The position numbers were made by a program, and so were the translations under genes. Below, one piece after another: positions 2,817 to 56,768 of a DNA stretch of 64,000 nucleotides; the first letter of the stretch is position 1; the number at the start of each line of letters is the position of its first letter. This DNA comes from a virus. Under the pieces are notes generated by a model, which saw only the letters and a program-made list of their open reading frames with translations, had not been told where the DNA came from and did not search any database. Where the stretch lies: the IMG/VR virus record IMGVR_UViG_3300045256_000567. One strand, 5' to 3'.

Positions 2817-2845
2817 TGTATGTCTTCTGCAAATTTTGCTATAAT
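2817..2845 (+). promoter_or_regulatory. CTGCAAA-TGCTATAAT promoter motif copy heading the portal operon
   Basis: TGTATGTCTTCTGCAAATTTTGCTATAAT; degenerate member of the repeated motif. Confidence 0.65.
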
Positions 2846-2867
2846 ATAATAGAAAATTTATCGTAAA

Positions 2868-3518
2868 ATGGATAATAGAATTGAAATAAATTTTGACAAT
2901 TATAACACTTCCGTTTATCAAAACGTAAAAAACGGAAAAAATAATATTTTAAAAATACTTTTTCCAATATTAGTAGCTATATATGTTGCTTACGTTTATA
3001 TTTATAAATTTTTAAAATCTAGAGTTCCATTTGTAAAAGATGAACATTATGCAGTATTAAAAAATGAAGCCTTTAATAATTATTTAGCTGATAAAAATAA
3101 TTATTTTTCAACTACAAGATATAAAGATGTTTCCAACTCATTTAACTTAAAAAATGAAATTCCAGAAACTATAAGTGAATATTATGAAAACTCTACTACG
3201 AAAGAAGGTATAATAAATTTTATATTTTACGAAGCTTTTCTTCCTTCATGTCTTAATATTTATTATGATCCAGATATCTGTACTAGCTTAAAATACAAAT
3301 ATAATGTGTTTTTGTTTTATTATGGAAATAATTATGACAATAATACTTTGGTGTTTTCAAATTTAAGCTTGCCTTATACTTTAGGTATAAGTGTAGATTC
3401 TCAAAATAATGAAATTATAAAAAGAGTTGTTTATTCAGATTACTTTGTTAAAAGTATAAATAATCTTTTTTCTTCTCATCTTGTATTCTATAAATTAGAG
3501 TTTTTAACTATAACTTAA
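2868..3518 (+). CDS. hypothetical protein upstream of portal
   Basis: 216-aa ORF, first gene of the portal operon. Confidence 0.7.
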   Translation: MDNRIEINFDNYNTSVYQNVKNGKNNILKILFPILVAIYVAYVYIYKFLKSRVPFVKDEHYAVLKNEAFNNYLADKNNYFSTTRYKDVSNSFNLKNEIPETISEYYENSTTKEGIINFIFYEAFLPSCLNIYYDPDICTSLKYKYNVFLFYYGNNYDNNTLVFSNLSLPYTLGISVDSQNNEIIKRVVYSDYFVKSINNLFSSHLVFYKLEFLTIT

Positions 3519-3527
3519 AGGAGCGCT

Positions 3528-6515
3528 ATGCTAGAAGATGTTATCAAATCAATAATTAATGTAACTCCAGATAAGCAAAAAAAACCTGTATTATATTTAA
3601 ATTCTAGAGTAAATCAAGCGTTATCTTTGGGAAGAGGAAAAGATTATCCAGGTTTTAAACCTTTACTTACCTATAGAGCGTTGGCCTGGAACTCTACAAT
3701 AGTATATTCAATTATTATTTTTAGAAGAAACCAGGTATTGAAAAAAGAAAAAATTGTAGTTCCATATAATAATCAAGAACCTACATTCAGATTTTCTATA
3801 CTTGAATATTCTCCTGAATCTCTTTTATATTTACCTTCTATAGATGAAGCTGATGCTATCGCAATATTAAAGCTTTATAGAAAATATAAAAATTCTGATA
3901 TAAAAGAACCGTTCACAATTCAAAACTTTAAAAATAAATTAAATGAATCGGAAAAAACAATATTAAATCACATAGAAGAAAAACATATAGAATATTATTT
4001 AAATAGAATAAGAGACACAAAAAAAATAATAAACTTTTTAAACAAACCAGACCCATATTTTTCAGAAGTTAATAATTGGGAACATTTGCTTTCAATGGTG
4101 CTTGATGATATATTGACAATAGATAGAGGAACAATTCTTAAAGTTAGAGATGATCGTGGAAAATTAATTTCTTTAGTACCAGTTGACGGTACAACAATAA
4201 AACCTGTTGTAAATGAAAATAATGGAGTAGTTGAAAACTATGTTCAAGAAGTTGATGGAGCCATTGTTAATGAATATATTGATAAAAAAGATATTATTTT
4301 ATTTAGACAAAATATAACTCCAGATGTTTATATGTATGGATATTCAATAGCACCAATAGAAATACTTTATAAAGCTATACTTTCTGATATTTTTATTGAT
4401 AAAGGAAACTTAGATTATTATAGAAAAGGTGGGTCTATACCAGAAGGTGTAATTACTATAGAACCACCTTCTGTAAAAGATGGAGATGTATATCCACAAT
4501 TAAGCAGAGAACAGCTTGAATCAATACAAAGACAACTTCAAGCTATAATGATGGGTGATTATACGCAAGTTCCAATTTTATCTGGAGGAAAATTTACTTG
4601 GATTGATTTTAAAGGAAAAAGGAGAGATATGCAATTCAAAGAACTTGCTGAATATGTGTCAAGAAAGATATGCGCTGTTTATCAAGTTTCACCTCAAGAT
4701 GTAGGAATAACTTCTGATGTAAATAGAGCTACAGCAGAAGTAATGGCTTCGATGACTAAAGCTAAAGGATTAGAGCCATTATTAGCAAATATATCAAGAG
4801 GATTTGATTCTGTTATAGATGAATTTAGACCGCAAAGAGATATTAAATTATGGTTTAAAGAAGATGACCTTGAAAAAGAAAAAGAATGGTGGTCAAGTGT
4901 TCAAGGAATGTTAAATTCTGGTTTTAGAACAATTAATGAACTTAGAATGGAAAAAGGTTTAGATCCAGTACCTTGGGGTGATGCTCCATTTTCTGGATTA
5001 CGTAATTGGGAGCCGCCTAAACCAGAAGAAAATAAAGAATCTCCTGGTAGCGGTATTCCTGGGGGAGCGCTTGGGGGTATGCCTGGAATGGATATGGGTG
5101 GTATGCAAGGTATTTTAGGAGGTGCACCTAATGCTTCTTCAGGTCCAGGTGGTGGTGCTGGAGCATCGGGAGGTTTAGGTGGTTTAGAAAGCCTTTTAAA
5201 TACTCCAGATGTAGGACAAGATCAAGGTGCACAAGGCTTAGATGCATTGAAACAGATGCTTCAAAAGTCTTTTGATGTTAAAGATACAGTTGAATTAATA
5301 AATGACAACAACTATCTTAATGACGAAGAGTTACTTAAGAGAGTTTTAAAAACAATAGGATCTGAATCTATAGTAGAATTCATATCTAACGACTTAGAAA
5401 ATGATTTAGAAGTCACACCAGAAGAACTTATTCAACACAATTTTAATAGTAAGATTTCTAATGGAAAATTAGTTATAGGGGAAGGTGGGTTGTTAGAAGT
5501 ACATCTTTTAGCAAATAGTAATTTTGATTTTGATTATAAAAAAATATTAGAATTAATGTCATTACATTACGATTGCTCTTCTTTACCAAAAATTTCTATA
5601 GAAAGTAATGAAATAGATAAATTCTCAAAAATAAATTTACATATATGCACTCCAATGCAAGGAAATATTGTAACGCTTTTAGATAAGCTAAATAGAGATT
5701 TTTATAAAAAACCAGATGTACTATATATACATTCAGACCAAAAAATTTTTGAAGAAATTTTACCAGTAAAAGAAAAAAATAATTTAATTTTGTATTCTCT
5801 ACTACCAGAAGACTATAAAGAAAATAATTTCAATAAACTTGTCGAGATATATGGGTATGATGAATATGCGTTCCTGTTTTCACCCAATAAATATATAGAT
5901 TTAATTAAAGAAGAAATGTTCTCAAATGAAGAGTTAAAAAATAGGCTTTCATGTGTTTACGGCCCACTATCTCTGTTTGCTATCGCTAAAGCAACAAATA
6001 AATATGGGGAAAATTTTATAATGCATTTATTAAATTCAAAAAATAAACAAGTGAGCACTATAACTAAGTATGTATTACTAGTAAATTCATATGATTTTGA
6101 AAAAGAATATAATGAAGAAGATATAAAACTAGATTTATTAGAAAATGAAAATAACTTTAATTTAAATAAACTATACGCTAATATATATATTGAAAATTTA
6201 GAAGAAGCTATAGAGTACTTAATTAATTATCTACACTCTATCAACGAAGATTCAGATTATGAATTTTCTAGATTTTTAAATATTATAAATTATGTTATTT
6301 TTGAGCAAGGCAATCAAGAGATTGCAACTAGTTTTATTAGTAAATTAATGAATGTTGATCAGACTGTAGATTCACTAGATTTTTTTGAATTGGTAGAAAA
6401 ATGTATTAATAATATAAAAAATCCTATAACAAAGTCATTGGTAAGAAAACACATGTTGGGAGAGAAATTAGAAAAAGAAGAGTATAAATTGATAGAAGAT
6501 TATGTTACAATCTAA
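3528..6515 (+). CDS. portal protein with long C-terminal extension
   Basis: Portal-like motifs LVPVDGTTI, YGYSIAPIE, DMQFKE..EYVSRKICAVYQVSP and TINELRMEKGLDPVPWGD in the first ~490 aa, then a Gly-rich linker and ~420 extra aa. Confidence 0.9.
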   Translation: MLEDVIKSIINVTPDKQKKPVLYLNSRVNQALSLGRGKDYPGFKPLLTYRALAWNSTIVYSIIIFRRNQVLKKEKIVVPYNNQEPTFRFSILEYSPESLLYLPSIDEADAIAILKLYRKYKNSDIKEPFTIQNFKNKLNESEKTILNHIEEKHIEYYLNRIRDTKKIINFLNKPDPYFSEVNNWEHLLSMVLDDILTIDRGTILKVRDDRGKLISLVPVDGTTIKPVVNENNGVVENYVQEVDGAIVNEYIDKKDIILFRQNITPDVYMYGYSIAPIEILYKAILSDIFIDKGNLDYYRKGGSIPEGVITIEPPSVKDGDVYPQLSREQLESIQRQLQAIMMGDYTQVPILSGGKFTWIDFKGKRRDMQFKELAEYVSRKICAVYQVSPQDVGITSDVNRATAEVMASMTKAKGLEPLLANISRGFDSVIDEFRPQRDIKLWFKEDDLEKEKEWWSSVQGMLNSGFRTINELRMEKGLDPVPWGDAPFSGLRNWEPPKPEENKESPGSGIPGGALGGMPGMDMGGMQGILGGAPNASSGPGGGAGASGGLGGLESLLNTPDVGQDQGAQGLDALKQMLQKSFDVKDTVELINDNNYLNDEELLKRVLKTIGSESIVEFISNDLENDLEVTPEELIQHNFNSKISNGKLVIGEGGLLEVHLLANSNFDFDYKKILELMSLHYDCSSLPKISIESNEIDKFSKINLHICTPMQGNIVTLLDKLNRDFYKKPDVLYIHSDQKIFEEILPVKEKNNLILYSLLPEDYKENNFNKLVEIYGYDEYAFLFSPNKYIDLIKEEMFSNEELKNRLSCVYGPLSLFAIAKATNKYGENFIMHLLNSKNKQVSTITKYVLLVNSYDFEKEYNEEDIKLDLLENENNFNLNKLYANIYIENLEEAIEYLINYLHSINEDSDYEFSRFLNIINYVIFEQGNQEIATSFISKLMNVDQTVDSLDFFELVEKCINNIKNPITKSLVRKHMLGEKLEKEEYKLIEDYVTI

Positions 6516-8493: not shown

Positions 8494-8499
8494 ATATAT

Positions 8500-10275: not shown

Positions 10276-10540
10276 AAAAGTTTTTCATATTTAGAACAGA
10301 AACTACCATATCAATTAAACCTGATATAAAATTAATTATATCCTTTTGTTTTTCTTCAGGTAAATTTGTAAAATTTAATACCTCATCTAAAAGATCTAAA
10401 GCTTTTTGCTTCTTTTCCAAAGAAGTCATAGTTTTATTTTTAGCAATCTCTTCTACTGTTTTCACTACATTTATTACGGTTGGTAGATACTTTGTTACAT
10501 ATGAAATTAAAGCGATTAGTGTTGGTATATAGTTTAGCAT
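10256..10540 (-). CDS. putative holin-like small membrane protein
   Basis: Hydrophobic N-terminus, EKKQKALD motif typical of small phage holins, AGGAG RBS. Confidence 0.45.
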   Translation of the reverse strand: MLNYIPTLIALISYVTKYLPTVINVVKTVEEIAKNKTMTSLEKKQKALDLLDEVLNFTNLPEEKQKDIINFISGLIDMVVSVLNMKNFFNKAQH

Positions 10541-10633
10541 AATTATTTCTCCTATTTATATTTTAATATAAATTTTTTAAAAATTTTTTGTAGGTATATT
10601 TTAATTTTGAAGGACTCCATGTTCAAAAGTTTA

Positions 10634-10662
10634 TTGACATCGTGAGGGGTTTGCGTTAAAAT
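10634..10662 (+). promoter_or_regulatory. sigma-A-type promoter, leaderless
   Basis: TTGACA-17 nt-TAAAAT, 7 nt before GTG 10670. Confidence 0.75.
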
Positions 10663-10669
10663 ATTTTTT

Positions 10670-12043: not shown

Positions 12044-12087
12044 TAAACCCTACGATTTATTATACTTAAATGTGCTATCTATTTTAT

Positions 12088-13560: not shown

Positions 13561-13562
13561 AA

Positions 13563-14897: not shown

Positions 14898-14901
14898 ATA
14901 C

Positions 14902-18751: not shown

Positions 18752-18778
18752 ATTATAGCACGTTTGCAGAAAACCTAC
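18752..18778 (-). promoter_or_regulatory. promoter motif copy, leaderless; overlaps the predicted TnpB guide
   Basis: GTAGGTTTTCTGCAAACGTGCTATAAT, 7 nt before ATG 18744. Confidence 0.75.
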
Positions 18779-18924
18779 GAGTGACGACTCCCAATTCTAA
18801 AGAATTGGGCTTCTCGCAAGAAGCGAAGGCTCCGTCCGAGCCTTAGCCAAGATATTTTGTGCCGCTGCAATATCCCGATGAAGGGTTGTATTGCATTTGG
18901 CGCAGGTATAGGTACGTATCCAAA
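18761..18924 (-). ncRNA. TnpB omega/reRNA (scaffold overlapping tnpB 3' end, plus guide at 18780-18761)
   Basis: Hairpin GGCTC-GGACG-GAGCC whose loop can pair with the terminal CGTC (pseudoknot), hairpin TCGC/GCGA, right-end hairpin CCCAATTCT/AGAATTGGG, end at TCAC. The 5' boundary is uncertain. Confidence 0.75.
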
Positions 18925-20080
18925 GTGGGTGTTTTTCTCTGTTACCACAAACAGGACAATCTTGGCTTGTGTATTTTGGGTCTACTTTTATTACTTGCCT
19001 ACCAGCTTCCTCCGCTTTGTAGGCAAGTATTGCTAGGAACTGTGCCCAACCTGCATCTAGGATACCTTTAGCTGTTCTAGTTTGAGCAAGTTGTTTTATA
19101 TCTAGGTCTTCGTGTACTATGGTTCCATATTTATTCACCAAGTCCTTTGCTACCTTGTGATGAAAATCCTTTCTTTGGTTTGCTATTTTTCGATGTACCT
19201 TGGCAACTAGTTTCTTAGCCTTGGTTCTTCTGTTGCTACCAGGTTTTCTTTTTGAAACTATTTGTTGTGCTTTGGCAAGCCTATCTTCAGACTTCTTGAA
19301 ATACCTAGGAGCAGGAACCATTTCACTGTCAGAGGTGGTTAGGAAGTTTGGGTTAGTACCAAGGTCTATTCCAACTGCATCTTGGTTTACAGGAAGTTTT
19401 TTTGGTTCTGTGATACAGGTGAAAATGACATACCATTCATCATTCTCCCTTTTTATAGAAGCTGTCTTTATTTGACCTTCAAGCGGTCTGTGAAACTTGC
19501 ATTTGATAGAACCAATCTTATGAACCAAAACTCTGTTTTTACCTTCTTGAATCTTGATTCCTGTTTTGCTTACTTGAGTAAAGGTGAAGCTGTCATACCT
19601 ATTTTCACCCTTGAATCTTGGGAAACCAGGTGTTTCACCTTTCTTTATACGCCTAAAAAAGCCTTGGTAGGCTTTATCTAACCTTTGTAGCACATCCTGA
19701 AGAACTTGACTATGTATATTCTTGTATTCTGGAAACTCTTCCTTTAGTTTAGGAAGTTGACTATTTTGCTCGTAACGGCTAATGGTCTTTTTGGAACTTT
19801 TGTACACGTCACGTCTTTTTTCCAAAGCAGTATTGTACAATTGACGACACAGAAACAAGGTTTTCTCTAAATCCTTGATCTGAGGCTTGGTTGGATACAG
19901 TCGGTACTTGAAAGACTTGATCATTGCTGACCTTTATTATACCATATTCAGGAATGTCACACTATTCAATCGCTTGTACATTATACCAAAAATTTATTAC
20001 CATTGTATTATGTGAGGGAGTCCATGTATCCCCGCTTTGAAAAGCGGGGAATTATAGCTCCCCCACACCCCCTCAATTTT
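18781..20080 (-). mobile_element. IS200/IS605-family (IS1341-type, tnpB only) element
   Basis: Right end GAAG-hairpin-GTCGTCAC at 18781, tnpB, and left-end-like hairpin TCCCCGCTTT/AAAGCGGGGA at 20029-20050. The left boundary lies between 20072 and 20080. No tnpA in the window. Confidence 0.8.
18797..19924 (-). CDS. tnpB: RNA-guided endonuclease TnpB
   Basis: KSFKYRLYPT N-terminus, GFPRFK, RuvC-I GIDLG, RuvC-II HEDL, Zn finger CPVC/CAKC, RuvC-III HRDIAAAQNI. Visibly more GC-rich than its neighbours. Confidence 0.96.
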   Translation of the reverse strand: MIKSFKYRLYPTKPQIKDLEKTLFLCRQLYNTALEKRRDVYKSSKKTISRYEQNSQLPKLKEEFPEYKNIHSQVLQDVLQRLDKAYQGFFRRIKKGETPGFPRFKGENRYDSFTFTQVSKTGIKIQEGKNRVLVHKIGSIKCKFHRPLEGQIKTASIKRENDEWYVIFTCITEPKKLPVNQDAVGIDLGTNPNFLTTSDSEMVPAPRYFKKSEDRLAKAQQIVSKRKPGSNRRTKAKKLVAKVHRKIANQRKDFHHKVAKDLVNKYGTIVHEDLDIKQLAQTRTAKGILDAGWAQFLAILAYKAEEAGRQVIKVDPKYTSQDCPVCGNREKHPLWIRTYTCAKCNTTLHRDIAAAQNILAKARTEPSLLARSPIL

Positions 20081-20098
20081 TTAAAGGTGTAGGGTTAC

Positions 20099-20131
20099 AA
20101 TTCCCAGTTCTTTAGAACTGGGAATCGTCAC
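20099..20131 (+). repeat. divergent copy of the IS605-type right end
   Basis: TTCCCAGTTCTTTAGAACTGGGAATCGTCAC versus GCCCAATTCTTTAGAATTGGGAGTCGTCAC, with a compensatory A-T to G-C stem change. Confidence 0.8.
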
Positions 20132-23100
20132 GGGTTTGGATGCAAAACAAGCACATAAATTTCATTGCTTATTGAATAGGGAAGGTTTAGCATTCTATAA
20201 CTTTGCGATGGCGTGTCAATTATAAGTTGATAAGGAATATATAAATTTTGTATAGAAGTATCTAAAATTCTTAGATTATAACAATAAGAGGTAGAAGTTA
20301 GAAAAACAGGGCGTATAAATTCATATGTACTTGAATCCAAAGGATCGTTTCTAGTATCAAAACCAGAGGATTTATTAATAATTAAGTTTGCGTCGCCATC
20401 TGCATTTAAAGCTATTATGTAATAAGTTTTTCCAGATTCAAATTTATATCCATGCGGGAAAAGTTTTTTATCACTAATAAATAGTGAATTATCGCTATTT
20501 ATATTATAGTTATTAATATCTAAAAGCAATTCATTAATTACGGCATTTTTATTACTTATTAAGTAATTAGTAACATTTAGACTAAAACTTGAAAATTTAT
20601 TTATATAATATTGATCATTAGAAATGACTTCTTCATTGTAAAGAAAATTCTCTATACATATATCTAAATGTTGAGATAAAAAAGAAAAGTAGCAAGGCAA
20701 ATAATAATTAAAATCAAAACTACTGTTTAACAAGTTTTTAAACGAAAAATTGTATGTATATATGAACGTTGCCGGAATTAAATCCTGTAAATCTTGGTTT
20801 TCAGGGTTGATAACATCAATATTAAAAACATATGGTCTAAAAACATGTACGGTACTTCTTGGAGATTTATCGGGGCTAGAAGAAAATTCGGCTAGAGATA
20901 CCCGTCCATTAAAATAGTTTAATATTTGACTAGTTGAGAGGTAATCGTTATTATTTAATTTAATATTTAAATTTAAATTTTTATCTTTAAAAACAATTGG
21001 TAAATACTCAACAAAAATAAAATCAAATACGGGGTAGGATAAAGAGGCATCATTTGTTGCCTGTGTTTTTGAAAAACTTTCACCTTTGAATTTTATTCTT
21101 ACAGAAAGCGGATCGTAAACATATGTGTCCTCGCTTAAGTATGTAGTGTATCCTCCTACGTCAATAAATGAAAAATATTCACTGTTTAATATATAAGGTT
21201 TAATATTGTTATTAACGTAATTAGACAATGGTAAATCTAAAGGAGGTATAAAATCAACTATATTATTATTTATTGATATAATATCAGTTTTTGAAGTAAA
21301 CTCATTATCAGAATTAATATTTGATGGTCCAAAATATGAGAATAATGAAAAAAATCTTGTAGGTGAATATTTGTTGCCATAATTAAATATATCAGAAAGA
21401 AATTGTAAAAACTCATTTAAGGCATTTGAGTTATTTTTTAAGGACACCAATGGAACGTGTGTAAAAACATTACGTACTATTGACAAATCCTGGTGAGATG
21501 GTAGCTGAGTTAAAAACATCATATCTTCAGATTGCCATGATGAGGAAGATACATCAACGCCTGGGTACGTTTGTGTTAAATAATTTAATGTTAAAGAATT
21601 TAAACTAGATATGAAATCATTAAAATTATTAAAATCTGGAATATCCAAAGTAAACTCTCTGGGAGTTTGATCATACGCGGGAACATACGAATATAAAATA
21701 AATCTGTTTGGGTTGTTTTTGTCGTTATTATTCTTATACAATACCACAACCGGTTTGTTGTTACTTGATAGACTTGTCAGATCAGAAAAATAAAAATTGT
21801 TTAAAACCCAAGCCTTTAAATTGCTGTAGGTATTTTTATTAAAATAATATTTTTTATCATTTTGAGCAAACTCATCCTCAACGAAAAGCTTTAGTGCTTT
21901 ATATACAAACAATCTCCCAAAATTTATAGATGGAAGACTTATAGAACCGGAATAAGATCCTAAGCTACTAGAATATGTACCTAAAGAAAGTATACTATTT
22001 ATAGTACTTGTAGAAAAATTACTTATTACATTATATATTGCGGGATAAAAATTATCTAAAAAATTTTTTGCAGTTAGGAAAATTCCCGAGTCTATTTGTG
22101 GATTTAAAAATTCAAATATACCCAATTTATTTAATGGATTTTGGTTATTTATTGTATTAAAAGAATATGTAAAATTTCCCGAAAAAGATAAATAATCTTT
22201 ATCAAAATGAAAGCAAACCTTTACTGGAACATTAGAAGTTTTTACATCAATTGTGCAATAAGTATCATTATTATTAGAAAATACAGCGCCATTATCAGTA
22301 TAAAAATCCTTAAATCCATTTTGTCCGCCTGTATTAAACCCAAAATTATTTACTTCTGGGGAGTATCCGAAAAATTTATTAGTTCCTATTGGTACAGATT
22401 CCATATTTTCAGCCGCAGTAATATTCTTAGAAAAGTTTAATGATGTTAGCGGACCTTCTGGATTTATTTTGTAAAATATTTCTTTCCCCGGAATTAATGA
22501 TAAAAAATAAAAATCATTTAAGTTATTACTATATTTACTATTCTCGTAATAAAAATTACTTATAGAAAAATTATTAATAGTAGTTTCATAAATATTATCT
22601 GAATTTGCTTTATAATTGCCGTCGTAGGTAAAAGGTAAGTATAAACTATATATGTAATATTTTGGATATATATTTTGTCCTATGCTTGGAGATACAAAAT
22701 TATAAGTTGGATCAATAGAATCATTTCCATATACAACAACAAAAATATCTATAGTAAGTATTCCTGCAAAAGAAAAACCCACATTAAACAAGTTTGTATT
22801 GTAAGTACTATCAAAAGAGCTTTCTGCCACGCCTATGGATTTATTTATATCTTGAATATTATAATTAATAGAAAAGCCGTTGTAGTAATTGTCTACAGGA
22901 TGATTATCCGGCAATTTGTCAAGTATTAAATTAACTAAACTTAAATCTACACCGGTATTACTGGGATCAATAAAAATGTACTTATTATTAATTTCATCAA
23001 AAATGGCAAATTTAGGAAGAACTTTTTCTTTAGTTAAATTGTTTAATAAAAAAGAAGAAACAACTTGCTTTAAAGTACTTTTTGTAGTTATATCAACAAA

Positions 23101-23253
23101 ACCCTTTCTTTTCCATGTCGGGGATTTTATATAATAAACATCTGGATAGGTATGTATTTTTATTGCTTCCCTATCAGGAAAAACAAAAGAAGAATTACCT
23201 ATGATATCTGGTGATGTGTATTCATTAATATCTGAACAACCTAAAGTTCTCAT
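20128..23253 (-). CDS. large Asn/Tyr/Phe-rich putative virion protein (1041 aa)
   Basis: Start moved to ATG 23253, 7 nt after TATAAT; the ORF-track extension runs through a palindrome. Confidence 0.65.
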   Translation of the reverse strand: MRTLGCSDINEYTSPDIIGNSSFVFPDREAIKIHTYPDVYYIKSPTWKRKGFVDITTKSTLKQVVSSFLLNNLTKEKVLPKFAIFDEINNKYIFIDPSNTGVDLSLVNLILDKLPDNHPVDNYYNGFSINYNIQDINKSIGVAESSFDSTYNTNLFNVGFSFAGILTIDIFVVVYGNDSIDPTYNFVSPSIGQNIYPKYYIYSLYLPFTYDGNYKANSDNIYETTINNFSISNFYYENSKYSNNLNDFYFLSLIPGKEIFYKINPEGPLTSLNFSKNITAAENMESVPIGTNKFFGYSPEVNNFGFNTGGQNGFKDFYTDNGAVFSNNNDTYCTIDVKTSNVPVKVCFHFDKDYLSFSGNFTYSFNTINNQNPLNKLGIFEFLNPQIDSGIFLTAKNFLDNFYPAIYNVISNFSTSTINSILSLGTYSSSLGSYSGSISLPSINFGRLFVYKALKLFVEDEFAQNDKKYYFNKNTYSNLKAWVLNNFYFSDLTSLSSNNKPVVVLYKNNNDKNNPNRFILYSYVPAYDQTPREFTLDIPDFNNFNDFISSLNSLTLNYLTQTYPGVDVSSSSWQSEDMMFLTQLPSHQDLSIVRNVFTHVPLVSLKNNSNALNEFLQFLSDIFNYGNKYSPTRFFSLFSYFGPSNINSDNEFTSKTDIISINNNIVDFIPPLDLPLSNYVNNNIKPYILNSEYFSFIDVGGYTTYLSEDTYVYDPLSVRIKFKGESFSKTQATNDASLSYPVFDFIFVEYLPIVFKDKNLNLNIKLNNNDYLSTSQILNYFNGRVSLAEFSSSPDKSPRSTVHVFRPYVFNIDVINPENQDLQDLIPATFIYTYNFSFKNLLNSSFDFNYYLPCYFSFLSQHLDICIENFLYNEEVISNDQYYINKFSSFSLNVTNYLISNKNAVINELLLDINNYNINSDNSLFISDKKLFPHGYKFESGKTYYIIALNADGDANLIINKSSGFDTRNDPLDSSTYEFIRPVFLTSTSYCYNLRILDTSIQNLYIPYQLIIDTPSQSYRMLNLPYSISNEIYVLVLHPNP

Positions 23254-23260: not shown

Positions 23261-23353
23261 ATTATAGCAAAGTTTGCAGAAAACTTACAAAATATGTTTG
23301 CATTCATCCTACGCTTAAAAGCGTAGGCTTTCTGCAAACATATTTTGTAAAAT
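23261..23353. promoter_or_regulatory. palindromic IS605-type left end(s) forming a divergent promoter region
   Basis: 18-bp perfect inverted repeat 23285-23302/23333-23350 around the hairpin CCTACGCTT/AAGCGTAGG. On the minus strand, TTAC-15 nt-AAAG-hairpin. -10 boxes TATAAT (23266-23261) and TAAAAT (23348-23353). Confidence 0.75.
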
Positions 23354-23359: not shown

Positions 23360-24067
23360 ATGGAAAAGAAAATTAAATTAGAACTTAAAAAGAAACTTAT
23401 AGATCTAGTATCTCAATTTGAAGTTTCACGAGATTGGGGTAGGGTTGCTGGAAATTTTGATGGACAAATTTTGTCTTACGGTCCTTTACAGTGGAATATT
23501 GGACAAAGCACTCTTTTTTACGTTTTAAAAAGGATTCCTCAAGAAGTTTTGGAAAAATATCTTGGTTCTGATTTTGTTAAAAGTTTGTCCTCAAATTCTT
23601 CATTGAGGTATTTTGTTTTACACAATATCTTAGGCAAAAATGGAAATGTTCTTCCTGGTTGGTCTAAAAAATTTTCTGATCTAGCTAAAGAGCCTTCTGT
23701 TATATCCGCATTTGTAGTTTCTGCGGAGCCTTACTTTATAAAATCTAACGATTGTTTAAATGAACTTGGTTTTACTACAGAAAGAGGAGCAGCTTTATGT
23801 TTTGACATAACTGTACAAAATGGTGGTCTAAGAAAAGATCATAAAATTTTATATACTAGGTATATAAGCACTAAAAATCCGCAAAATGAGTGGGAAAAAT
23901 ATAAAATACTAGCAAATGTAATTGCTGAATTAGCTAACCCACAGTGGAAAAATGATGTATTAAATAGAAAACTTACCATTGCACTTGGTAAGGGTTCTGT
24001 GCATGGAGTAAATATAGATTTAGAAAAAGATTTTGATATTTCTTATAATCGAACCTGGTACATGTGA
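23360..24067 (+). CDS. lysozyme-fold peptidoglycan hydrolase (putative endolysin)
   Basis: FEVS...GNFDGQILSYGPLQWNIGQ and ALCFDITVQNGG, typical of lysozyme/chitosanase-fold muramidases. Confidence 0.7.
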   Translation: MEKKIKLELKKKLIDLVSQFEVSRDWGRVAGNFDGQILSYGPLQWNIGQSTLFYVLKRIPQEVLEKYLGSDFVKSLSSNSSLRYFVLHNILGKNGNVLPGWSKKFSDLAKEPSVISAFVVSAEPYFIKSNDCLNELGFTTERGAALCFDITVQNGGLRKDHKILYTRYISTKNPQNEWEKYKILANVIAELANPQWKNDVLNRKLTIALGKGSVHGVNIDLEKDFDISYNRTWYM

Positions 24068-24078: not shown

Positions 24079-24312
24079 GTGACGACTCCCAATTCTAAAG
24101 AATTGGGCTTCTCGTAATTAACGAAGGCTCCGTCCAAGCCATTATCGGTATTTTCTTATTTTCCCGATGATTACCTTGAATCTTATAATTCAAGTACCTA
24201 CCAGCATTTTCAGCTTTGTAGGATTTGGTGTGCTTCTTTTGCACAAGTTTATTATAGCACAGTTTGCAGAAAGCCTACTCCTAAAATCACAGGCTTTCTG
24301 CAAACTTGTATT
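24079..24312 (-). mobile_element. non-autonomous IS605 derivative (MITE-like) carrying a stand-alone omega-RNA scaffold
   Basis: Left end TTAC|15 nt|AAAG-hairpin, tnpB remnants (24197-24222 matches 18998-19023 at 22/26), and a right end identical to that of tnpB over the last ~35 nt. Confidence 0.8.
24251..24278 (-). promoter_or_regulatory. promoter motif copy pointing into the omega-RNA-like sequence
   Basis: GTAGGCTTTCTGCAAACTGTGCTATAAT with no credible CDS downstream. Confidence 0.7.
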
Positions 24313-24334
24313 GTAAGAACATATAGTGTATACT
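24306..24334 (+). promoter_or_regulatory. sigma-A-type promoter, leaderless
   Basis: TTGTAT-17 nt-TATACT, 7 nt before ATG 24342. Confidence 0.6.
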
Positions 24335-34220: not shown

Positions 34221-34704
34221 ATGGAATTCTTTACAAATAGTTAACACATATATACAGAGAGACAATGTACTTTCTGTATTCGATCCATATAAGGGACAAC
34301 TAAACTTTAAAAATCAGCAACAAACTTTACCCAATGATATCAGACTAAATTATGATGGAGATATAGATTTTAATGATAGTGATTTAATTTTTGTATATAA
34401 CTTAGAAGCTTTTGTGCAAAGATTATATTTTTATTTAATAACCCCTAGAGGAACATTACCAGGATTTCCAAATTTTGGTACAAATATTGAATTTTTTATT
34501 GGAAAAATGAATAATCAAATAGATTTAAATGCTCTAGTTAGACTGATGAATAGTAATTTGGAAGAATTTGAAGACATTGAATACGTAAATGATATAACAG
34601 CTTCTTTAATAAGAGAAAATCAATCTTATTACATAAAAATTAATTTGGATATTAAGCCTAGAAATTTTGAATATAAACTAATACTTGATATGCAGGTTTT
34701 TTAA
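34213..34704 (+). CDS. baseplate wedge subunit, gp25-like
   Basis: DGDIDF...QRLYFYLITPRGTLPGFPNFGTNI. Confidence 0.75.
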   Translation: MPRWNSLQIVNTYIQRDNVLSVFDPYKGQLNFKNQQQTLPNDIRLNYDGDIDFNDSDLIFVYNLEAFVQRLYFYLITPRGTLPGFPNFGTNIEFFIGKMNNQIDLNALVRLMNSNLEEFEDIEYVNDITASLIRENQSYYIKINLDIKPRNFEYKLILDMQVF

Positions 34705-35078
34705 TTTCTTTTGCAAGTATCTAAAGTTTCTGAAAGAAAAAAGTTTTCTGTTTTTGTTTTTGTTTCTACGGCAAGCCAAAAAATTTCATCTGATATTTTT
34801 TCTTTTTTGACAAATTTAAAAATTGCCCCCCCATCATACCAAGAAAAAGTATCACCTTCGTTTAAGCACTCAAAACCCTCATAAGGAAATTCAATAAACT
34901 TTCTATTATTTTCTATATCAAATTCTTTCATTTTATTTATAATAAATCTTCTTAGAGTAGAATAAGGTAAATTAAATTGTTGAGATAATTCAAAATAATT
35001 TGTGCTTTTATTTTGAACGTACAATTCAAATGCCTTTTCTAGTAAGATAATTTTATCTTTTGAAATTTTTCTCGGCAT
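34701..35078 (-). CDS. HTH-containing protein
   Basis: Likely start MPRK at 35078; YFELSQQFNLPYSTLRRF. Confidence 0.55.
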   Translation of the reverse strand: MPRKISKDKIILLEKAFELYVQNKSTNYFELSQQFNLPYSTLRRFIINKMKEFDIENNRKFIEFPYEGFECLNEGDTFSWYDGGAIFKFVKKEKISDEIFWLAVETKTKTENFFLSETLDTCKRN

Positions 35079-35658
35079 AAGATTCGAATTCTTTTGGGTT
35101 AAGTGTTTGTATATCATCATCAAGTTTTAAGAATTTAGTTTTATCTCCATAATTATTAATTATGAAGAATATTTTGTTAATTAATCTGTTTTTTTCCTTT
35201 TCTCTATTTAATGTTGCTTCTATTTCTTTGTTTTTTATTGGAAATGATTCTTGTGATTTATTTTCCCCATTGTTAAATTCATACTTTTCGCATAAAGAAT
35301 TTTTTTCTATATAATCGTTGAATTCTGTAAAATATAAAGTTTTTACTTTATCAGGTAAACTGTCAAATGTTTTAGTATTCTTACAGTGAGTATAAAAATA
35401 TGATTTATTTTGCAAAAAGTTTGTTTCATTGTTTTTTGTTGAATCAATATTTTCATTTTTTATATTATTGTTGACTTTATTTTCTTGATTAGAATTATTG
35501 TCTTTAACAGAATCGTTTTTAGGTTGTTCTTCAGCTTTGCTGTTTATTATAGCGCCATCACTTTTATGTTGAACATTTAAGTCTTTAAATATTGAAAAAA
35601 GCTTTAGTAAAGAAAATATTAATGCAACAATTTGTCCTATAATATTAATTATTAACAT
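35053..35658 (-). CDS. membrane-anchored hypothetical protein
   Basis: Hydrophobic N-terminus followed by an Asn/Lys-rich linker. Confidence 0.6.
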   Translation of the reverse strand: MLIINIIGQIVALIFSLLKLFSIFKDLNVQHKSDGAIINSKAEEQPKNDSVKDNNSNQENKVNNNIKNENIDSTKNNETNFLQNKSYFYTHCKNTKTFDSLPDKVKTLYFTEFNDYIEKNSLCEKYEFNNGENKSQESFPIKNKEIEATLNREKEKNRLINKIFFIINNYGDKTKFLKLDDDIQTLNPKEFESYAEKNFKR

Positions 35659-35688
35659 ATATATTTAATTATATCAAAAAATTTTGTT

Positions 35689-35710
35689 TTTTTGCAAACT
35701 GTTCTATAAT
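35689..35710 (+). promoter_or_regulatory. degenerate promoter motif copy upstream of the terminase cluster
   Basis: TTTTTGCAAACTGTTCTATAAT, 6 nt before in-frame GTG 35717. Confidence 0.5.
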
Positions 35711-35716
35711 AAAGTA

Positions 35717-35986
35717 GTGGAAAAACCAATAAAAGTTTTTTATATAGATAGTATAATAAGCAACAAAAAAAGAATAAAATATGTTGCTTTAGAAGGTCTT
35801 TGTGCTGATATAGAAAATGAATATGTAATAAAGTGCAGGGATGATATAGAAAGCATAATGAATTATAAAGATCATGTAATATCAAGCCCATTTACTCCAG
35901 ATAAAACAATTTTAGAGTTTTTAAAAAAATTAAAAATTTTGAGAGAAGGGTTTGATGATAAAGAAATAATTGAAAAATTTATTTAA
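35717..35986 (+). CDS. hypothetical protein
   Basis: Start moved to GTG 35717 (leaderless geometry). Confidence 0.55.
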   Translation: MEKPIKVFYIDSIISNKKRIKYVALEGLCADIENEYVIKCRDDIESIMNYKDHVISSPFTPDKTILEFLKKLKILREGFDDKEIIEKFI

Positions 35987-46876: not shown

Positions 46877-46887
46877 ATTATATATAA

Positions 46888-46915
46888 ATTATAACACACG
46901 TTTGCAGAAAACCTA
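46888..46915 (-). promoter_or_regulatory. promoter motif copy heading the protease-capsid operon
   Basis: TAGGTTTTCTGCAAACGTGTGTTATAAT. Confidence 0.75.
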
Positions 46916-46935
46916 TGTATTTTAAAAAGAAATTT

Positions 46936-47292: not shown

Positions 47293-48196
47293 ATGTGAAA
47301 TTTAGAAGTACTCTTTTTGTTGGAGCGTCCTCACTTATATATCTAAATAATAAAAATGGATAATACGTTTGGTTTCTAAATGGTGGGACATTGTTATATT
47401 GTGGTTTTAAATTGACAGGGCCATTATTTTCACTTACCGAAGTTATGCTTGTTTGACCATAATTGATTAAATTTTGTACAGCCAAAACAAAATTTCCAGT
47501 AGTGGGGTCTATATTATCCATAAAATCATTTGTATTATTTGATTGAAGAACAGAAAATCTATATTTAATAATTTGATTAAAAAATCCCAACTGATTTGAA
47601 TATGTTGGATTATTTGTAAGAAACATAGTATTGTAGGAGTTAGAGGTACCAGCTATAGCATTTAAATATGCTGGTTTAGATGGATCATTAATTACGGTTT
47701 GGTGTATTATAGGTGCTGCAATAAAAATTCCATAATCTGGTGTACACCTTGAAGTATCAACAGAAAAAATTGGATTTGAAAGTATAAAATTGTTTTCGTT
47801 ATCTACGTTTGGATCTATTACTGTTGTATTAACAAAATACAATACTATAAAATCTATGTAATATCTTTTTCCATTAATTATATAAGGCCCATATCCATTA
47901 CATGATATGTTATCTGGAGAGGTTAAGCATGCAGAACTTCCTACATATAGATTCGAATTATTAAATTGCTTTATAAATTCCAAAAATTTTATCTTATATG
48001 ATGTTGTATCTTTATAGCCTATTAATTGAACATTTACTTTTTTTGAAGGATCTGGAAGTCCAATACTATTTAATTCATTTACATACGCCCATTCATAATT
48101 TGGATTTAATTGAGATGTTGTATTTATTATTATAGACCCCATTGGATCTATTACCGTATTTTGTCCATAAAATAGTGAAAATGTTTTGTCTGGCAT
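47276..48196 (-). CDS. putative virion protein
   Basis: 306 aa, Asn-rich, behind a motif promoter. Confidence 0.55.
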   Translation of the reverse strand: MPDKTFSLFYGQNTVIDPMGSIIINTTSQLNPNYEWAYVNELNSIGLPDPSKKVNVQLIGYKDTTSYKIKFLEFIKQFNNSNLYVGSSACLTSPDNISCNGYGPYIINGKRYYIDFIVLYFVNTTVIDPNVDNENNFILSNPIFSVDTSRCTPDYGIFIAAPIIHQTVINDPSKPAYLNAIAGTSNSYNTMFLTNNPTYSNQLGFFNQIIKYRFSVLQSNNTNDFMDNIDPTTGNFVLAVQNLINYGQTSITSVSENNGPVNLKPQYNNVPPFRNQTYYPFLLFRYISEDAPTKRVLLNFTFAPYA

Positions 48197-48207
48197 ATTC
48201 TAAAACA

Positions 48208-48235
48208 ATTATAGCACAGTTTGCAGAAAGCCTAC
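48208..48235 (-). promoter_or_regulatory. promoter motif copy (outward-facing from the MITE left end)
   Basis: GTAGGCTTTCTGCAAACTGTGCTATAAT, identical to 24251-24278. Confidence 0.75.
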
Positions 48236-48409
48236 ACCTTTATGTGTAGGATGAATGCAAACAAATTTGGATACGTACCTATACCTGCACCAAATGCAAC
48301 ACAACCCTTCATCGGGATATTGCAGCAGCACAAAATATCTTGGCTAAGGCTCTGACAAAGTCTTCGCTTCTTGCGAGAAGCCCAATTCTTTAGAATTGGG
48401 AGTCGTCAC
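48213..48409 (+). mobile_element. non-autonomous IS605 derivative: left end fused to tnpB 3' end/omega-RNA and right end
   Basis: TTAT|AGCACAGTTTGCAG-AAAG-CCTACAC/GTGTAGG hairpin, then 48266-48409 matching 18924-18781 with 7 differences in 144 nt. Confidence 0.85.
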
Positions 48410-48410
48410 A

Positions 48411-52737: not shown

Positions 52738-52755
52738 ATGCTACCTAAAAAAATT

Positions 52756-54675
52756 TTAATATACTTCAAAGAATATAGTAATATAATCTATATTAACAAA
52801 AATATTTGTTGTTGCACCAACAAACCTTAATATAAAATATGGACTTGGACCAGAGTTAATATTATAATTATAAGAAAGCAAAGAATTGTTGTTAAACAAA
52901 TTATTAAATCCAAAACTAAACATTTGTTGTGTAGATGTTGATGCTGGAGAAGAAATTAACGAAGTACTTGAAAAATTTACACCATCAAGCCATTCTAGAT
53001 CTAATGTAAATGGTGTATCAGAAATGTTGCTACCAGTTGTTATATATACACGAAGTTTCATGGATATTGATTTAATAGAAGTAATTCTTCCATTTTCGGT
53101 GATTATAGGAAGAATAGGAATTACTATATAATTATTTGTACTTCCACTTTGTAAAAGTGTTTTGTATATTGATACAGTTCTCCATTTAGGCGGTGGATTT
53201 ATAGCTTGTGCAATATTAATCATGTTTTGATATGGAGTAAGAGCATTCGAAGAGGGGGAGAAGTTAATGGTATTTTGATTAACAACATTTATTTGACCAA
53301 GTAATACATAATCTCCAGTAACCGATTGAGTATTAGGAACAATAAGTAAATGTGGCCTTATATTAAGAATAGATGCCTGTGATGTAACTTTAGATAATGA
53401 ATTGTAAAAAGTTTGACCAAGTTCAGGAGAATCTATGTTTTTTACATATAAGTTATATATTTGAGAAGAAGTTGGATTTGGTATTTTTAATGTACCGCCA
53501 AATTTTCCAGCAAATGTAATATTATTTGGCATATCTAAATTTACACTTATTGGTAATGGTGTAGTTAATACATAATCAAAAGCATAAACAGAAGAATCCG
53601 GTCCAGGCAAAAATCCAGAATTAATATTTATTGTTCCATCTAAACTTATTTGTAAAACATCTACGGCCAATAAAGAACTTAGATTTGATAAATTTTTTAG
53701 TGTTCCGCTTGTTTTATCTAGTGTGAGAACGTTTATATAGCTTAAAGTTTCTGAACTCAAATTTTCAAAAGGTAAAGAGAACTGAGAAATAGTTACATTA
53801 TTAGAAGAAAACTGTTTATTAGAAAGTTTTTCCAAAAAGTAGAAAGAAACTTTATCCCCATCATTTATTAACAAGCTTGATAAATATAAATATATTTTAT
53901 TTGGAGAATCATCGCTTACTTTGTATAATATTTGAGTATTATAAACAGGTACATCCTTTGGAATATGATAATAAGAAGTGTTTACATTATTGTTTACAGT
54001 TGATTCAATTTCAAGAACAAGATCTTTGTTTGTAACAGAGCAGTTCATCAATGGAAACTCTATGTAACAATTAGATGGGTCGTTATTTACGCAGAAATTA
54101 CTTTTAAAATCACTCCACAATATCTTAGTTACTATATCTTTATTAAATTTTCCGTTTATGTCCTTTGGCAATGGACTTATTTTTCCTTGTCTTATCTTAT
54201 TAAAAGATACGTCTGTATAATTTAAATTTTGATTAATATTATAATCAGATTTAATTTGTGGGTGACCATTTACGTATACAAATGAAAATAAACCACTAGA
54301 ATAAGAAACTACATTTTCTGATGATAATATGGAATTTGGAACTTGTATCGGATTTGAAACAGAACCATTTAAAGGTACGTTGTCGTCGTATATAATGCTA
54401 TAGGTTAAACATTCATTATAATCATGCTTCGTAATTCCCTCTTTATCTAAGTATATAAATTTTTTATTATTACCCAAAGAAACATCAAGGAAATAATCAT
54501 TTCCTATAACATTTATATTAAAATTAAATATATTTGTTATTGGATCGTCACCAAAATATCCCTCTCCAAATACTCTTCTTATAGAATCCAATAAATCATC
54601 TGTATTTATGTTTGCTAAATTTAAAACATCAGATGCCCTTAAAAATTTTAGTTCTGTAGGATTAAACTTTTTCAT
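52756..54675 (-). CDS. putative baseplate/tail-associated protein
   Basis: 639 aa, beta-rich, translationally coupled to the baseplate J-like gene. Confidence 0.55.
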   Translation of the reverse strand: MKKFNPTELKFLRASDVLNLANINTDDLLDSIRRVFGEGYFGDDPITNIFNFNINVIGNDYFLDVSLGNNKKFIYLDKEGITKHDYNECLTYSIIYDDNVPLNGSVSNPIQVPNSILSSENVVSYSSGLFSFVYVNGHPQIKSDYNINQNLNYTDVSFNKIRQGKISPLPKDINGKFNKDIVTKILWSDFKSNFCVNNDPSNCYIEFPLMNCSVTNKDLVLEIESTVNNNVNTSYYHIPKDVPVYNTQILYKVSDDSPNKIYLYLSSLLINDGDKVSFYFLEKLSNKQFSSNNVTISQFSLPFENLSSETLSYINVLTLDKTSGTLKNLSNLSSLLAVDVLQISLDGTININSGFLPGPDSSVYAFDYVLTTPLPISVNLDMPNNITFAGKFGGTLKIPNPTSSQIYNLYVKNIDSPELGQTFYNSLSKVTSQASILNIRPHLLIVPNTQSVTGDYVLLGQINVVNQNTINFSPSSNALTPYQNMINIAQAINPPPKWRTVSIYKTLLQSGSTNNYIVIPILPIITENGRITSIKSISMKLRVYITTGSNISDTPFTLDLEWLDGVNFSSTSLISSPASTSTQQMFSFGFNNLFNNNSLLSYNYNINSGPSPYFILRFVGATTNIFVNIDYITIFFEVY

Positions 54676-56735
54676 TTCCTCCGCACCCCAATGTTGTACT
54701 TAGAGTAGAAATCTTTATTTATTATATTAGAATAAGAAATTCTGCAAACTTCTTTTTCTTTAGAAAAAGAATCCAGATCTTTGTACTGTATATATTGCAC
54801 ATCATTTAGTAAAGTATATAATAACTTTATTTCGTAAGAATTGCTTGAGCAGAATCCTGTTGTATCGTTTATTAAATTCTCACATAATTCGATATCATTG
54901 TCTGATGGTATAGGAAGAGTAAGGAATTTTATTTTTAAATAATTTGCTTCTACTGGATCAATACTTTCTACTGCTCTTAAACTCAAGCCTATTTTTGTAA
55001 AAGTGTTTAAATAATTTGATGCATTATTAAATGCTACTGAAGAAACCTCCTTAAAACATAGGTCTAAAGGCTTATTTTTACAATTAGTTTTAATTTCATT
55101 AATAAAATTAGTGTAATAATACCTATTTACACTATCTCCTAAAATATCCCCGTAAATATTGTTCAATATTTTTTCAACTATAGTTTTTTCCTGATAACGT
55201 GGTGCTTGTAAAAATAAATTACCGCCCGTTAAAGAAAATTTAGATAGGTAAGATATGTAGTTGTTGTAAGAATTAAAACCATTTTTAGAATATACGTATA
55301 ATGCCAATTTTCCTTGGTTAACAATATCTAAATATTCTGAATATGTAAAATATTGGGAGGGGTCAGAACACTTAGTAGGAATTTCGCTCAAACTGTTTGG
55401 AACAACATCATTATAGTAAGTCATGCATATAAAATTTTTATAAGTATTTTTATATAATTCAAATAATTCTGGGGTAAGGGAAAATCCCAAATATATATTA
55501 TTTACATTAAATTCATTGCTTAATATTTGCCAAATTTTTGAATAACTAATTTCTTCTCCAAGATCAAGTTTATTTAAATTATCTCCTAAGTATTGTTTTA
55601 GTCTGTTAATATCATTGTTAGATGATATGCTATCTGTTTCAAGAATTACATTAAATAAGTTGTTTTTCGCTAATCTTATGTTAATTATTGTTCCTGCCGG
55701 TTTAACGTCTTCAAGTTGCGACAAAAGCAAAGGTAAAAAGTTAGATATTGAACTAGAAGAAGTTATATATAAATCCAGTATTCCAGGATTATTTGTAGTG
55801 TATAATTGCGCTGAACTATTAGGAAGAAGTGTATATATTTTTGTTTGTATTGCTTGCAGAGTGCCTTTTGTTAAAGATCCTAAAAAGCTCCAATACCTTT
55901 GCCTATATGATTCATCGCTTTCCTCATCTATGCCTCCATTAATTTCAGAGCTATAGGCTAAAGTAAGCATCCCTCCTTCTACTTTTGCTATGGAATCAAT
56001 ATCTACAACAAGCTCGTTTGTAGGTAAGGAAGTATTTAATACATAATCAAAATTATTTTCTACTAAAAATTTAAAGTTTCCAGCATTTACAAAAGTATTA
56101 ACAACTCCACTACTAATATTTTTATTGCTTCCAGTATCAATAGAAATTAAAGGAAATACTAAATATTTGATATAAGAATTTGGATTTTGCTGTAATATAG
56201 ATATTGTATAGTTAGCTATCAATTCTGCTATTTTTTGATTTCCAGTGTCTGGATTTACTTCAAAAAATGATTCATCTGTTGCTTGTAAAAGTTTTATTGG
56301 AGGAAGTAATGCATAATCAAATATTCCATTAGTTGTAGATACTTTTATTGTAGAAGCTAAAGGTGGAGTATAAAGAACTCCAGAGTTCACGTCAAGTCTA
56401 CTAAATACTAACTTTGATAAAGAACTTGAAGTTATAGAATCAGATATATTAAAGCTTACAGGCATTAGGGTTACATATCCTAATGCTCTTGTTCCTTTTA
56501 TTCTTTCAATTTTAGATAATCCATAAATTAATTGATCTAAGTAAGATCCTGTAGCAGTATGCACATAACTATTATTTTTTATTTCATCTATAGATGAATA
56601 TACCTCTTCTAAAGCAGTTGAAACACTATAAAACATTGATTTTATAACGCTTCCATTTCTTAGAGCGTTAATTTTATTTTGTATAGTTAAAAATAAACTC
56701 TCTATAGAAGAAAGTATTTCAAATCTATCTGGCAC
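54672..56735 (-). CDS. baseplate J-like wedge protein
   Basis: TATGSYLD, GGIDEESDESYRQR, KGTLQAI and DVKPAGT. Confidence 0.85.
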   Translation of the reverse strand: MPDRFEILSSIESLFLTIQNKINALRNGSVIKSMFYSVSTALEEVYSSIDEIKNNSYVHTATGSYLDQLIYGLSKIERIKGTRALGYVTLMPVSFNISDSITSSSLSKLVFSRLDVNSGVLYTPPLASTIKVSTTNGIFDYALLPPIKLLQATDESFFEVNPDTGNQKIAELIANYTISILQQNPNSYIKYLVFPLISIDTGSNKNISSGVVNTFVNAGNFKFLVENNFDYVLNTSLPTNELVVDIDSIAKVEGGMLTLAYSSEINGGIDEESDESYRQRYWSFLGSLTKGTLQAIQTKIYTLLPNSSAQLYTTNNPGILDLYITSSSSISNFLPLLLSQLEDVKPAGTIINIRLAKNNLFNVILETDSISSNNDINRLKQYLGDNLNKLDLGEEISYSKIWQILSNEFNVNNIYLGFSLTPELFELYKNTYKNFICMTYYNDVVPNSLSEIPTKCSDPSQYFTYSEYLDIVNQGKLALYVYSKNGFNSYNNYISYLSKFSLTGGNLFLQAPRYQEKTIVEKILNNIYGDILGDSVNRYYYTNFINEIKTNCKNKPLDLCFKEVSSVAFNNASNYLNTFTKIGLSLRAVESIDPVEANYLKIKFLTLPIPSDNDIELCENLINDTTGFCSSNSYEIKLLYTLLNDVQYIQYKDLDSFSKEKEVCRISYSNIINKDFYSKYNIGVRRK

Positions 56736-56741
56736 AAATAG

Positions 56742-56768
56742 ATTATAGCATAGCTTGCAGAAAACCTA
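56742..56768 (-). promoter_or_regulatory. promoter motif copy heading the baseplate operon, leaderless
   Basis: TAGGTTTTCTGCAAGCTATGCTATAAT, 6 nt before GTG 56735. Its TAG is also the stop codon of the upstream gene. Confidence 0.75.

Follow-up and report, generated by a model that had tools for sequence, protein, structure and literature searches.

How does a phage come to carry one and the same short repeat, joined to a −10 hexamer, in front of several of its operons? The question arises from a 64,000-nucleotide stretch of viral DNA, IMG/VR record IMGVR_UViG_3300045256_000567 (below, the window), in which a 16-mer, TAGGYTTTCTGCAAAC, recurs upstream of the hexamer TATAAT. An earlier note, made from the sequence alone, had read these copies as left ends of an insertion sequence (IS) of the IS200/IS605 family, domesticated as outward-facing late promoters. 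The analysis described here retains the first half of that statement and revises the second: with a probability of roughly 0.6, IS ends landed on −10 boxes that the phage already possessed, and re-formed them.

The window is DNA of a phiYS40/TMA-like myophage. Its portal protein is 50% identical in amino acid sequence to those of the Thermus phages phiYS40, TMA, and YS40_Isch, and its genes for portal, major head protein, prohead protease, baseplate, and tail fibre match PHROGs with phiYS40-like members. The GC content is about 28%, the coding share is 94%, and the same DNA is found in hot-spring and microbial-mat metagenomes. Megablast of the 18–25 kb region against a phage collection gave no match; its nearest relatives, at 76–92% protein identity, are the IMG/VR contigs G001 (55 kb) and G002 (15 kb).

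The repeat is real. Within the window the 16-mer has 11 matches at up to three mismatches, as against a mean of 1.5 and a maximum of 5 in shuffled sequence, and the composite pattern CTGCAAAC-N1-4-TGYTATAAT has five exact matches where none is expected. (The count of copies used below covers the window plus one copy outside it, at L021:43.) A −10-like hexamer lies 4–8 nt downstream of ten of the 11 copies, across a linker that varies in both sequence and length. From the end of the hexamer to the start codon the distance is 6–11 nt in seven copies and 22–24 nt in two (2819 and 24290). No −35 hexamer stands at 16–18 nt from these −10 boxes; a two-hexamer scan of 18–25 kb flags only 23290–23261, the remaining copies having been judged by eye. 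The sigma-70 scan found no enrichment, and is uninformative for promoters that lack a −35.

What is the repeat? The strand opposite the promoter displays the anatomy of a left end of the IS608 type: (A)TTAT or TTAC; a linker of 13–15 nt containing GTTTGCAG; AAAA or AAAG; and CCTAC, which opens a hairpin. The target lies 17–19 nt from the foot of this hairpin, with the guide AAAA or AAAG at the foot. In IS608, TTAC lies 19 nt from the hairpin foot, and the tetranucleotide AAAG, on the 5′ side of the foot, directs cleavage (PMC3201880). Here AAAA pairs with TTAT in four copies and AAAG with TTAC in two, and at the right end, which consists of GAAG, a hairpin, 9 nt, and TCAC, GAAG pairs with TCAC. 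The pairing register is the one that we take to apply from the structures of IS608. The earlier note had held that AAAG/TTAC, AAAA/TTAT, and GAAG/TCAC all fit the guide/target rule; the rule holds in seven of nine copies, the other two pairing AAAG with TTAT through a T:G.

In complete copies CCTAC opens a 7-bp hairpin set inside a longer outer stem, GTTTGCA/TGCAAAC. The hairpin that the note had placed on the opposite strand proves to be present in some copies only. The complete ends fold as single-stranded DNA: 48208–48270 with z = −4.0, and 23284–23351, which includes the copy at 23350, with z = −11.2 and −25.4 kcal/mol. At 18752 the hairpin is split by a tnpB element, and the stubs at 46888 and 56742 show no single-stranded fold and so cannot be active ends. 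Ends of the TTAT type start with AGCA (or AACA or AGAA), and their junction with the target reads TGnTATAAT, as had been proposed: the hexamer is a perfect TATAAT in all eight TTAT-type copies, and TGn precedes it in seven. The repeat stops exactly at ATTAT, and the flanks beyond are unrelated. Given the IS608-type geometry, the right-end partners, and the link to tnpB described next, the motif can be identified as the 5′ portion of a true IS200/IS605-type left end, facing outward.

The window contains one tnpB element (E1 in the table) and several mini-elements without tnpB. The E1 open reading frame (ORF) encodes TnpB, with the Pfam domains OrfB_IS605, TNB, and HTH. Its RuvC D/E/D motifs align with structures of ISDra2-type TnpB, and the RuvC triad is intact. 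The protein is 61–68% identical to TnpBs of Thermus, Meiothermus, and Calidithermus, and 90% identical to TnpB P0001. The ends of E1 are a left end of Thermaceae type, GGGGGTGTGGGGGAGC-TATAAT-hairpin, and a right end, GAAG-hairpin-AGTCG-TCAC; elements of Meiothermus, Calidithermus, and Thermus share these signatures. In some bacterial elements with ends of E1 type, a Y1 TnpA is encoded between the left end and tnpB, as in Calidithermus and Meiothermus elements (L126:663–1208 and L128:723–1199). Such elements are likely to have supplied a transposase acting in trans, and they suggest a Thermaceae host. A Pfam scan of 50 window ORFs found no Y1_Tnp match. On the minus strand at 18781–18800, the DNA 3′ of the E1 TCAC (TCG-TAGGTTTTCTGCAAAC), the would-be omegaRNA guide, is the promoter motif itself.

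The CCTAC-type left end is physically joined to tnpB as well. Metagenome contigs connect it to the tnpB start through 32 nt containing GGTATAAT (joints 19925/19928 to 23295), with TGGTATAAT in its place in one of the three listed variants; full elements with a CCTAC end therefore exist. These contigs come from four runs of a single sample, in which assemblies break at the elements, extra element variants appear, and no contig spans an empty site. Depth over the tnpB region (18828–20155) in the source metagenome is about 7× that of the phage backbone; many variants occur there, and a derivative lacking tnpB is represented by a joint from 18899 to 20023. The element family has multiple copies, whether in the phage, in co-resident genomes, or in both.

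Two mini-elements illustrate how the parts combine. E2 consists of a complete CCTAC-type left end (48213–48265, after the target ATTAT) followed by 144 nt (48266–48409, ending in TCAC) that are 95% identical to the 3′ end of E1 together with its right end. E4 ends in a right-end-like hairpin and TCAC, with a guide that does not match, and has been split by the tnpB element within its hairpin loop. The minus-strand GTGA(C) of the E4 right end supplies the TGA stop (20128–20131) of the gene at 20128–23253. Deleting 18757–20131 in silico yields CCA-TAA, leaving the C-terminus of the upstream gene unchanged, and a −10 of CATAAT that the TAA overlaps; the E4 insertion was seamless on both sides. 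E1 within E4 is one of two nested insertions into left-end hairpins, the other being a full end that abuts a stub at CTTAC (23288), so the hairpin may be a hot spot for secondary events. What had been taken for one symmetric end at 24251/24316 is in fact two truncated left-end heads, back to back.

Comparison with relatives, run as the earlier note had proposed, separates the age of the motif from that of the −10 boxes. The 16-mer is absent from G001, G002, a 157-kb phiYS40-like genome, and two other related fragments, and, by a looser 11-mer scan and inspection of its orthologous promoters, from phiYS40. Scans for the motif plus −10 in viral and metagenome contigs gave single chance matches only, those in metagenomes without the TAGG prefix. 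tnpB, too, is absent from phiYS40 and from most motif-free relatives, including the 55-kb and 15-kb closest ones and the 157-kb genome. At all six comparable orthologous sites (the portal operon, 23360, 24342, 35717, the protease, and 47276) the relatives carry a plain TATAAT or TAAAAT, 6–16 nt before the start codon, and no motif. Thus the portal operon of G001 has a plain TATAAT; the counterpart of 35717 in G002 has a plain TGTAAAAT; and the protease site in relative L009 has only TAAAAT, 6 nt before ATG. The orthologous phiYS40 promoters share the design, a −10 beside the ORF, without the 16-mer (statements on phiYS40 promoter classes reflect our own reading of its sequence). The E2 site is empty in L009, which reads TAG-CTTG-TATAAT where the window reads TGA-T-[E2]-ATAAT; there is no target duplication, and the E2 boundary is approximate because L009 is only about 77% identical. 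Since the relatives show a plain −10 without the motif at six of six sites, the comparison indicates that the −10 boxes are ancestral, and that the motif is a lineage-specific insertion that came with the transposon. The claim that insertion yields an extended −10 accordingly needs amending: the junction does read as one, but an existing −10 was re-created and no new promoter arose, since the relatives have a −10 there.

This suggests the following model. An IS608-like element of the IS200/IS605 family would have entered the phage lineage. One of its left-end types would insert on the 3′ side of (A)TTAT, a sequence complementary to the −10 hexamer TATAAT. Promoters of the phage, as in phiYS40 and the Deinococcus-Thermus hosts, would lack a −35 and place the −10 6–16 nt before the start codon. 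With a left end that begins 5′-AGCA, the gene-strand junction would read ...CTGCAAAC-N-TGC-T/ATAAT (the slash marking the junction), so that the element would restore the first T of the hexamer and put TG at −15/−14, producing an extended −10. The operon downstream would retain a functional promoter, and for that reason, it is proposed, only such insertions survive in so densely coding a genome. An outward extended −10 arising from insertion would do no harm only at a site that was a promoter of this kind beforehand, and the observed copies would be the survivors. Several copies would then have lost the hairpin and interior, becoming immobile stubs of 26–30 nt that serve as the upstream half of the promoter. 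Mobilization presumably occurred in trans, by a host TnpA. By this account, pieces of transposon end would form the upstream half of about ten promoters.

The distribution of the copies bears on the model. The window has 1854 TTAT sites, of which 84 are intergenic and outside elements. Eight of these 84 fall in ATTATA boxes 3–14 nt from a start codon, and six of the eight carry a left end. Random picking among intergenic TTAT sites would give (8/84)^6 < 1e-6, so the siting on −10 boxes is not random. Orientation follows from sequence: TATAAT has TTAT only on its complement (ATTATA), so that insertion 3′ of ATTAT necessarily turns the element away from the gene downstream. Survivorship is presumably the cause of the association with −10 boxes, to which a longer target preference, ATTAT[A], may add.

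Transcription presumably starts at the junctions. The genes at 20128–23253 (minus) and 23360–24067 (plus) diverge from a 106-nt spacer that is left-end DNA almost throughout, so the promoters of both must be the junctions. In relatives, the same start codons are preceded by a −10 at an equal distance. For Deinococcus-Thermus, experiments support a promoter design in which the −10 lies next to the ORF (PMC12340547).

Several observations weigh against this model. Two copies have a T:G pair (guide AAAG, target TTAT). The CCTAC hairpin differs both from the right-end hairpin and from the bacterial left-end hairpin, so that its recognition by the same TnpA is hypothetical. A search of bacterial genomes (full left-end pattern, genome contigs) found no CCTAC-type left end. 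The copies at 2819 and 24290 sit 22–24 nt from the start codon, and the 24290 element gives no −10. Finally, the stubs share a sharp truncation point at CCTA (the TAGG boundary), which the model leaves unexplained.

That common boundary would also fit the view that the distal TAGGYTTTCTGCAAAC is itself a selected promoter element, a factor site or UP-like sequence that defines a late class, and that the stubs have been kept for its sake. Such true domestication is possible, albeit doubtful. In keeping with it, the 16-mer is far better conserved than the 4–6 nt linker, and six copies precede virion/morphogenesis operons. However, mismatches to the 16-mer occupy 9 of 112 positions in stubs as against 0 of 48 in intact ends (p = 0.06), while the −10 hexamers of the stubs have no mismatch in 36 positions; this suggests that constraint was relaxed once the ends became immobile. 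(The decay statistics are weak, at p = 0.06 and 0.11, with small numbers and a bias from how the copies were found.) The pattern suggests that the −10 and TG are constrained while the distal 16-mer slowly decays; it does not bear out the proposal that hairpin halves were lost through selection for promoter function. Moreover, the outer stem of intact ends needs GTTTGCA, which explains the conservation of GTTTGCA without a promoter role, and relatives express the same operons without the motif. Nor are the copies confined to late genes. The label "late", with its structural and packaging operons, suits about six of 11; of the others, one precedes the gene next to the ribonucleotide reductase, and another faces a non-coding cassette. 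The copy outside the window, a complete CCTAC-type left end at L021:1–100, about 2.3 kb to the left of the window start, reads TGTTC-TATAAT; a 25-nt leader containing a Shine-Dalgarno-like TAGGAG separates it from a gene cluster that includes a RecA-like gene. This copy is neither at a late operon nor leaderless.

Could the ends and stubs instead be tolerated debris, with transcription supplied by read-through or other promoters and TATAAT a mere target? Several copies do lie between co-directional genes, where read-through is possible, but no other DNA is left for a promoter between the divergent genes at 23.3 kb or those at 35.7 kb. With the −10 kept at the same distance in relatives, and a perfect TATAAT in every TTAT-type copy, inert scars are an unlikely explanation. 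It is likewise improbable that a promoter/stem-loop cassette like the PeSLs (promoter–stem-loop elements) of T4-type phages was spread by recombination rather than by TnpA, its likeness to an IS end being secondary. A unit of hairpin plus promoter is indeed repeated in intergenic regions of a large myophage (PMC2839356, PMC4122927), and the 35.7-kb copy lies in a 1.3-kb module whose orientation is reversed in G002; against this stand the IS608-type geometry with its guide/target pairing, the physical linkage of the end to right ends and tnpB, and the exact stop of the repeat at ATTAT amid unrelated flanks. That the motif is a native promoter element of the phage, mimicked or captured by the transposon end, is hardly credible: only the co-location of motif and promoters speaks for it, and the motif is absent from all relatives examined and occurs only in the lineage with tnpB. 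We give as little credence to a reading through RNA, by which the 16-mer would be retained because a TnpB–guide complex binds or cuts left-end-type promoters and so couples maintenance of the transposon to control of the virion operons. The intact RuvC triad leans against it, as do the mismatches of the stubs at the three guide positions proximal to the transposon-associated motif (TAM) and at the TAM position; these mismatches make self-cutting by TnpB at the stubs unlikely.

Table. Left-end copies, elements, and related features (positions in the window; distances run from the −10 hexamer to the start codon).
Feature	Coordinates	Strand	Composition	Setting
Degenerate left-end stub	2819..2845	+	3 mismatches in 16-mer; TTTGC-TATAAT; −10 at 2840–2845	22 nt to ATG 2868, first gene of portal operon
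E4 head (16-mer 18762)	18752..18780	-	promoter-side head of mini-element E4; plus strand reads ATTAT/AGCAC-GTTTGCAG-AAAA-CCTACGA; TATAAT 18752–18757	7 nt to ATG 18744
E1	18781..20080	-	tnpB element; tnpB ORF 18797–19924	inserted in E4 hairpin loop
E4 remainder	20081..20131	+	3′ half of CCTAC hairpin; right-end-like hairpin CCCAGTTC..GAACTGGG; TCAC	
Truncated left-end stub (16-mer 23272)	23261..23288	-	TTTGC-TATAAT, 23261–23266	7 nt to ATG 23253 of 1041-aa gene
Complete left end (16-mer 23324 +)	23289..23353	+	top strand on minus, reading TTAC/AAAATAT-GTTTGCAG-AAAG-CCTACGC..GCGTAGG-ATGAA-TGCAAAC	outward side meets TAAAAT 23348–23353, 6 nt to ATG 23360
E3	24079..24256	-	non-coding cassette homologous to tnpB 3′ end and right end; from TATAAT 24251–24256 to TCAC 24079–24082	
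Paired heads	24257..24317	both	two truncated left-end heads, back to back	
Head (16-mer 24262)	24257–24277	-	feeds E3 −10 TATAAT 24251–24256	faces non-coding cassette, no protein gene
Head (16-mer 24290)	24290–24317	+ (top strand minus)	target TTAC; own hexamer poor, TGTAAG	faces gene 24342, which has native TATACT 7 nt before ATG 24342
Degenerate stub	35684..35710	+	TTGTTTTTTTGCAAAC-TGTTC-TATAAT; TATAAT 35705–35710	6 nt to GTG 35717; divergent promoter region
16-mer match	38598	-	11th match; no −10; probably chance	within coding sequence
Stub (16-mer 46900)	46888..46915	-	perfect 16-mer; GTGTGT-TATAAT; no hairpin	11 nt to ATG 46876, prohead protease/major capsid operon
E2 (16-mer 48219 −)	48208..48409	+	mini-element; outward junction TGTGC-TATAAT	11 nt before ATG 48196
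Stub (16-mer 56753)	56742..56768	-	1 mismatch; TATGC-TATAAT	6 nt to GTG 56735 of baseplate operon

Some further features lie beside the elements. The cassettes at 24079–24256 and 48266–48409 are homologous to the last 60–144 nt of tnpB plus the right end, and are candidate stand-alone omegaRNA genes; no Rfam family was matched anywhere in the window, E3 included. On the minus strand at 20192–20219, inside the 3′ end of the gene at 20128–23253, is a near-consensus TTGACA-16-TAGAAT (11 of 12 positions) aimed at E4 and the tnpB element. At 56765–56768, the TAG of the TAGG in the stub is the stop codon of the gene at 56766–57266. A divergent module at 34701–35986 (34701–35123 and 35053–35658 on one side, 35717–35986 on the other) is inverted relative to the closest relative (L009:9879–11158), and the degenerate left-end copy at 35.7 kb sits in its internal divergent promoter region, not at the module borders.

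The elements resemble left ends of the IS608/ISDra2 type and their tnpB-less derivatives, palindrome-associated transposable elements (PATEs) and mini-elements, in having a subterminal hairpin, a target 17–19 nt 5′ of its foot, and a pairing four-nucleotide guide. Also shared are a right end cleaved about 9 nt beyond the 3′ side of its hairpin, TnpB as cargo, and the lack of a visible target duplication. Unlike those systems, they have a target, (A)TTAT, that is the complement of a −10; an AGCA tip that generates an outward TGnTATAAT; and an extra outer stem, GTTTGCA/TGCAAAC. They also differ in the lack of TnpA in cis, in residing in a phage genome of lytic type, and in an end type not found in the bacterial genomes searched. 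Repetitive extragenic palindromes (REPs) are domesticated hairpins of IS200/IS605 type, and need a REP-associated tyrosine transposase (RAYT) gene. The window has no Y1_Tnp-like ORF, and hence nothing to serve as the RAYT (TnpA_REP) gene that REPs and the related REPINs require. To our knowledge, REPs do not act as promoters. The PeSLs of T4-type phages, which lie on either side of variable ORFs and promote the exchange of these, likewise combine a short repeated intergenic hairpin with a regulatory signal, without transposon-end geometry.

On the promoter side, outward promoters derived from ISs are well represented: 40 ISs have complete outward promoters, and 28 have outward −35 parts (PMC9208149). 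As in IS hybrid promoters, DNA of a transposon end here makes part of a neighbouring gene's promoter. In known hybrids, however, the IS usually contributes a −35 or an entire promoter and switches on a gene that was silent, whereas here the end donates one −10 base plus TG and replaces the upstream half of a pre-existing promoter. The resulting arrangement, with a −10 6–11 nt before the start codon, no −35, and TG upstream, is like that of leaderless or near-leaderless promoters of phiYS40 and Deinococcus-Thermus (PMC12340547), the orthologous phiYS40 promoters differing in that they lack the 16-mer; Thermus phage P23-45, for its part, has extended −10 late promoters (PMC3351154). In the literature searched, no IS200/IS605 end is described as targeting the −10 complement and rebuilding an extended −10, nor is one described from a phage.

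If this reading is correct, a transposon end targets the −10 box itself, and its tip repairs the box that it splits. This would explain how a single-strand transposon colonizes a phage genome that is 94% coding without killing the phage. The portal, capsid, and baseplate operons would then have promoters partly of transposon origin, a natural case of promoter rewiring by mobile DNA. Moreover, the reading predicts a reprogrammable insertion specificity (ATTAT) for a thermophilic TnpA.

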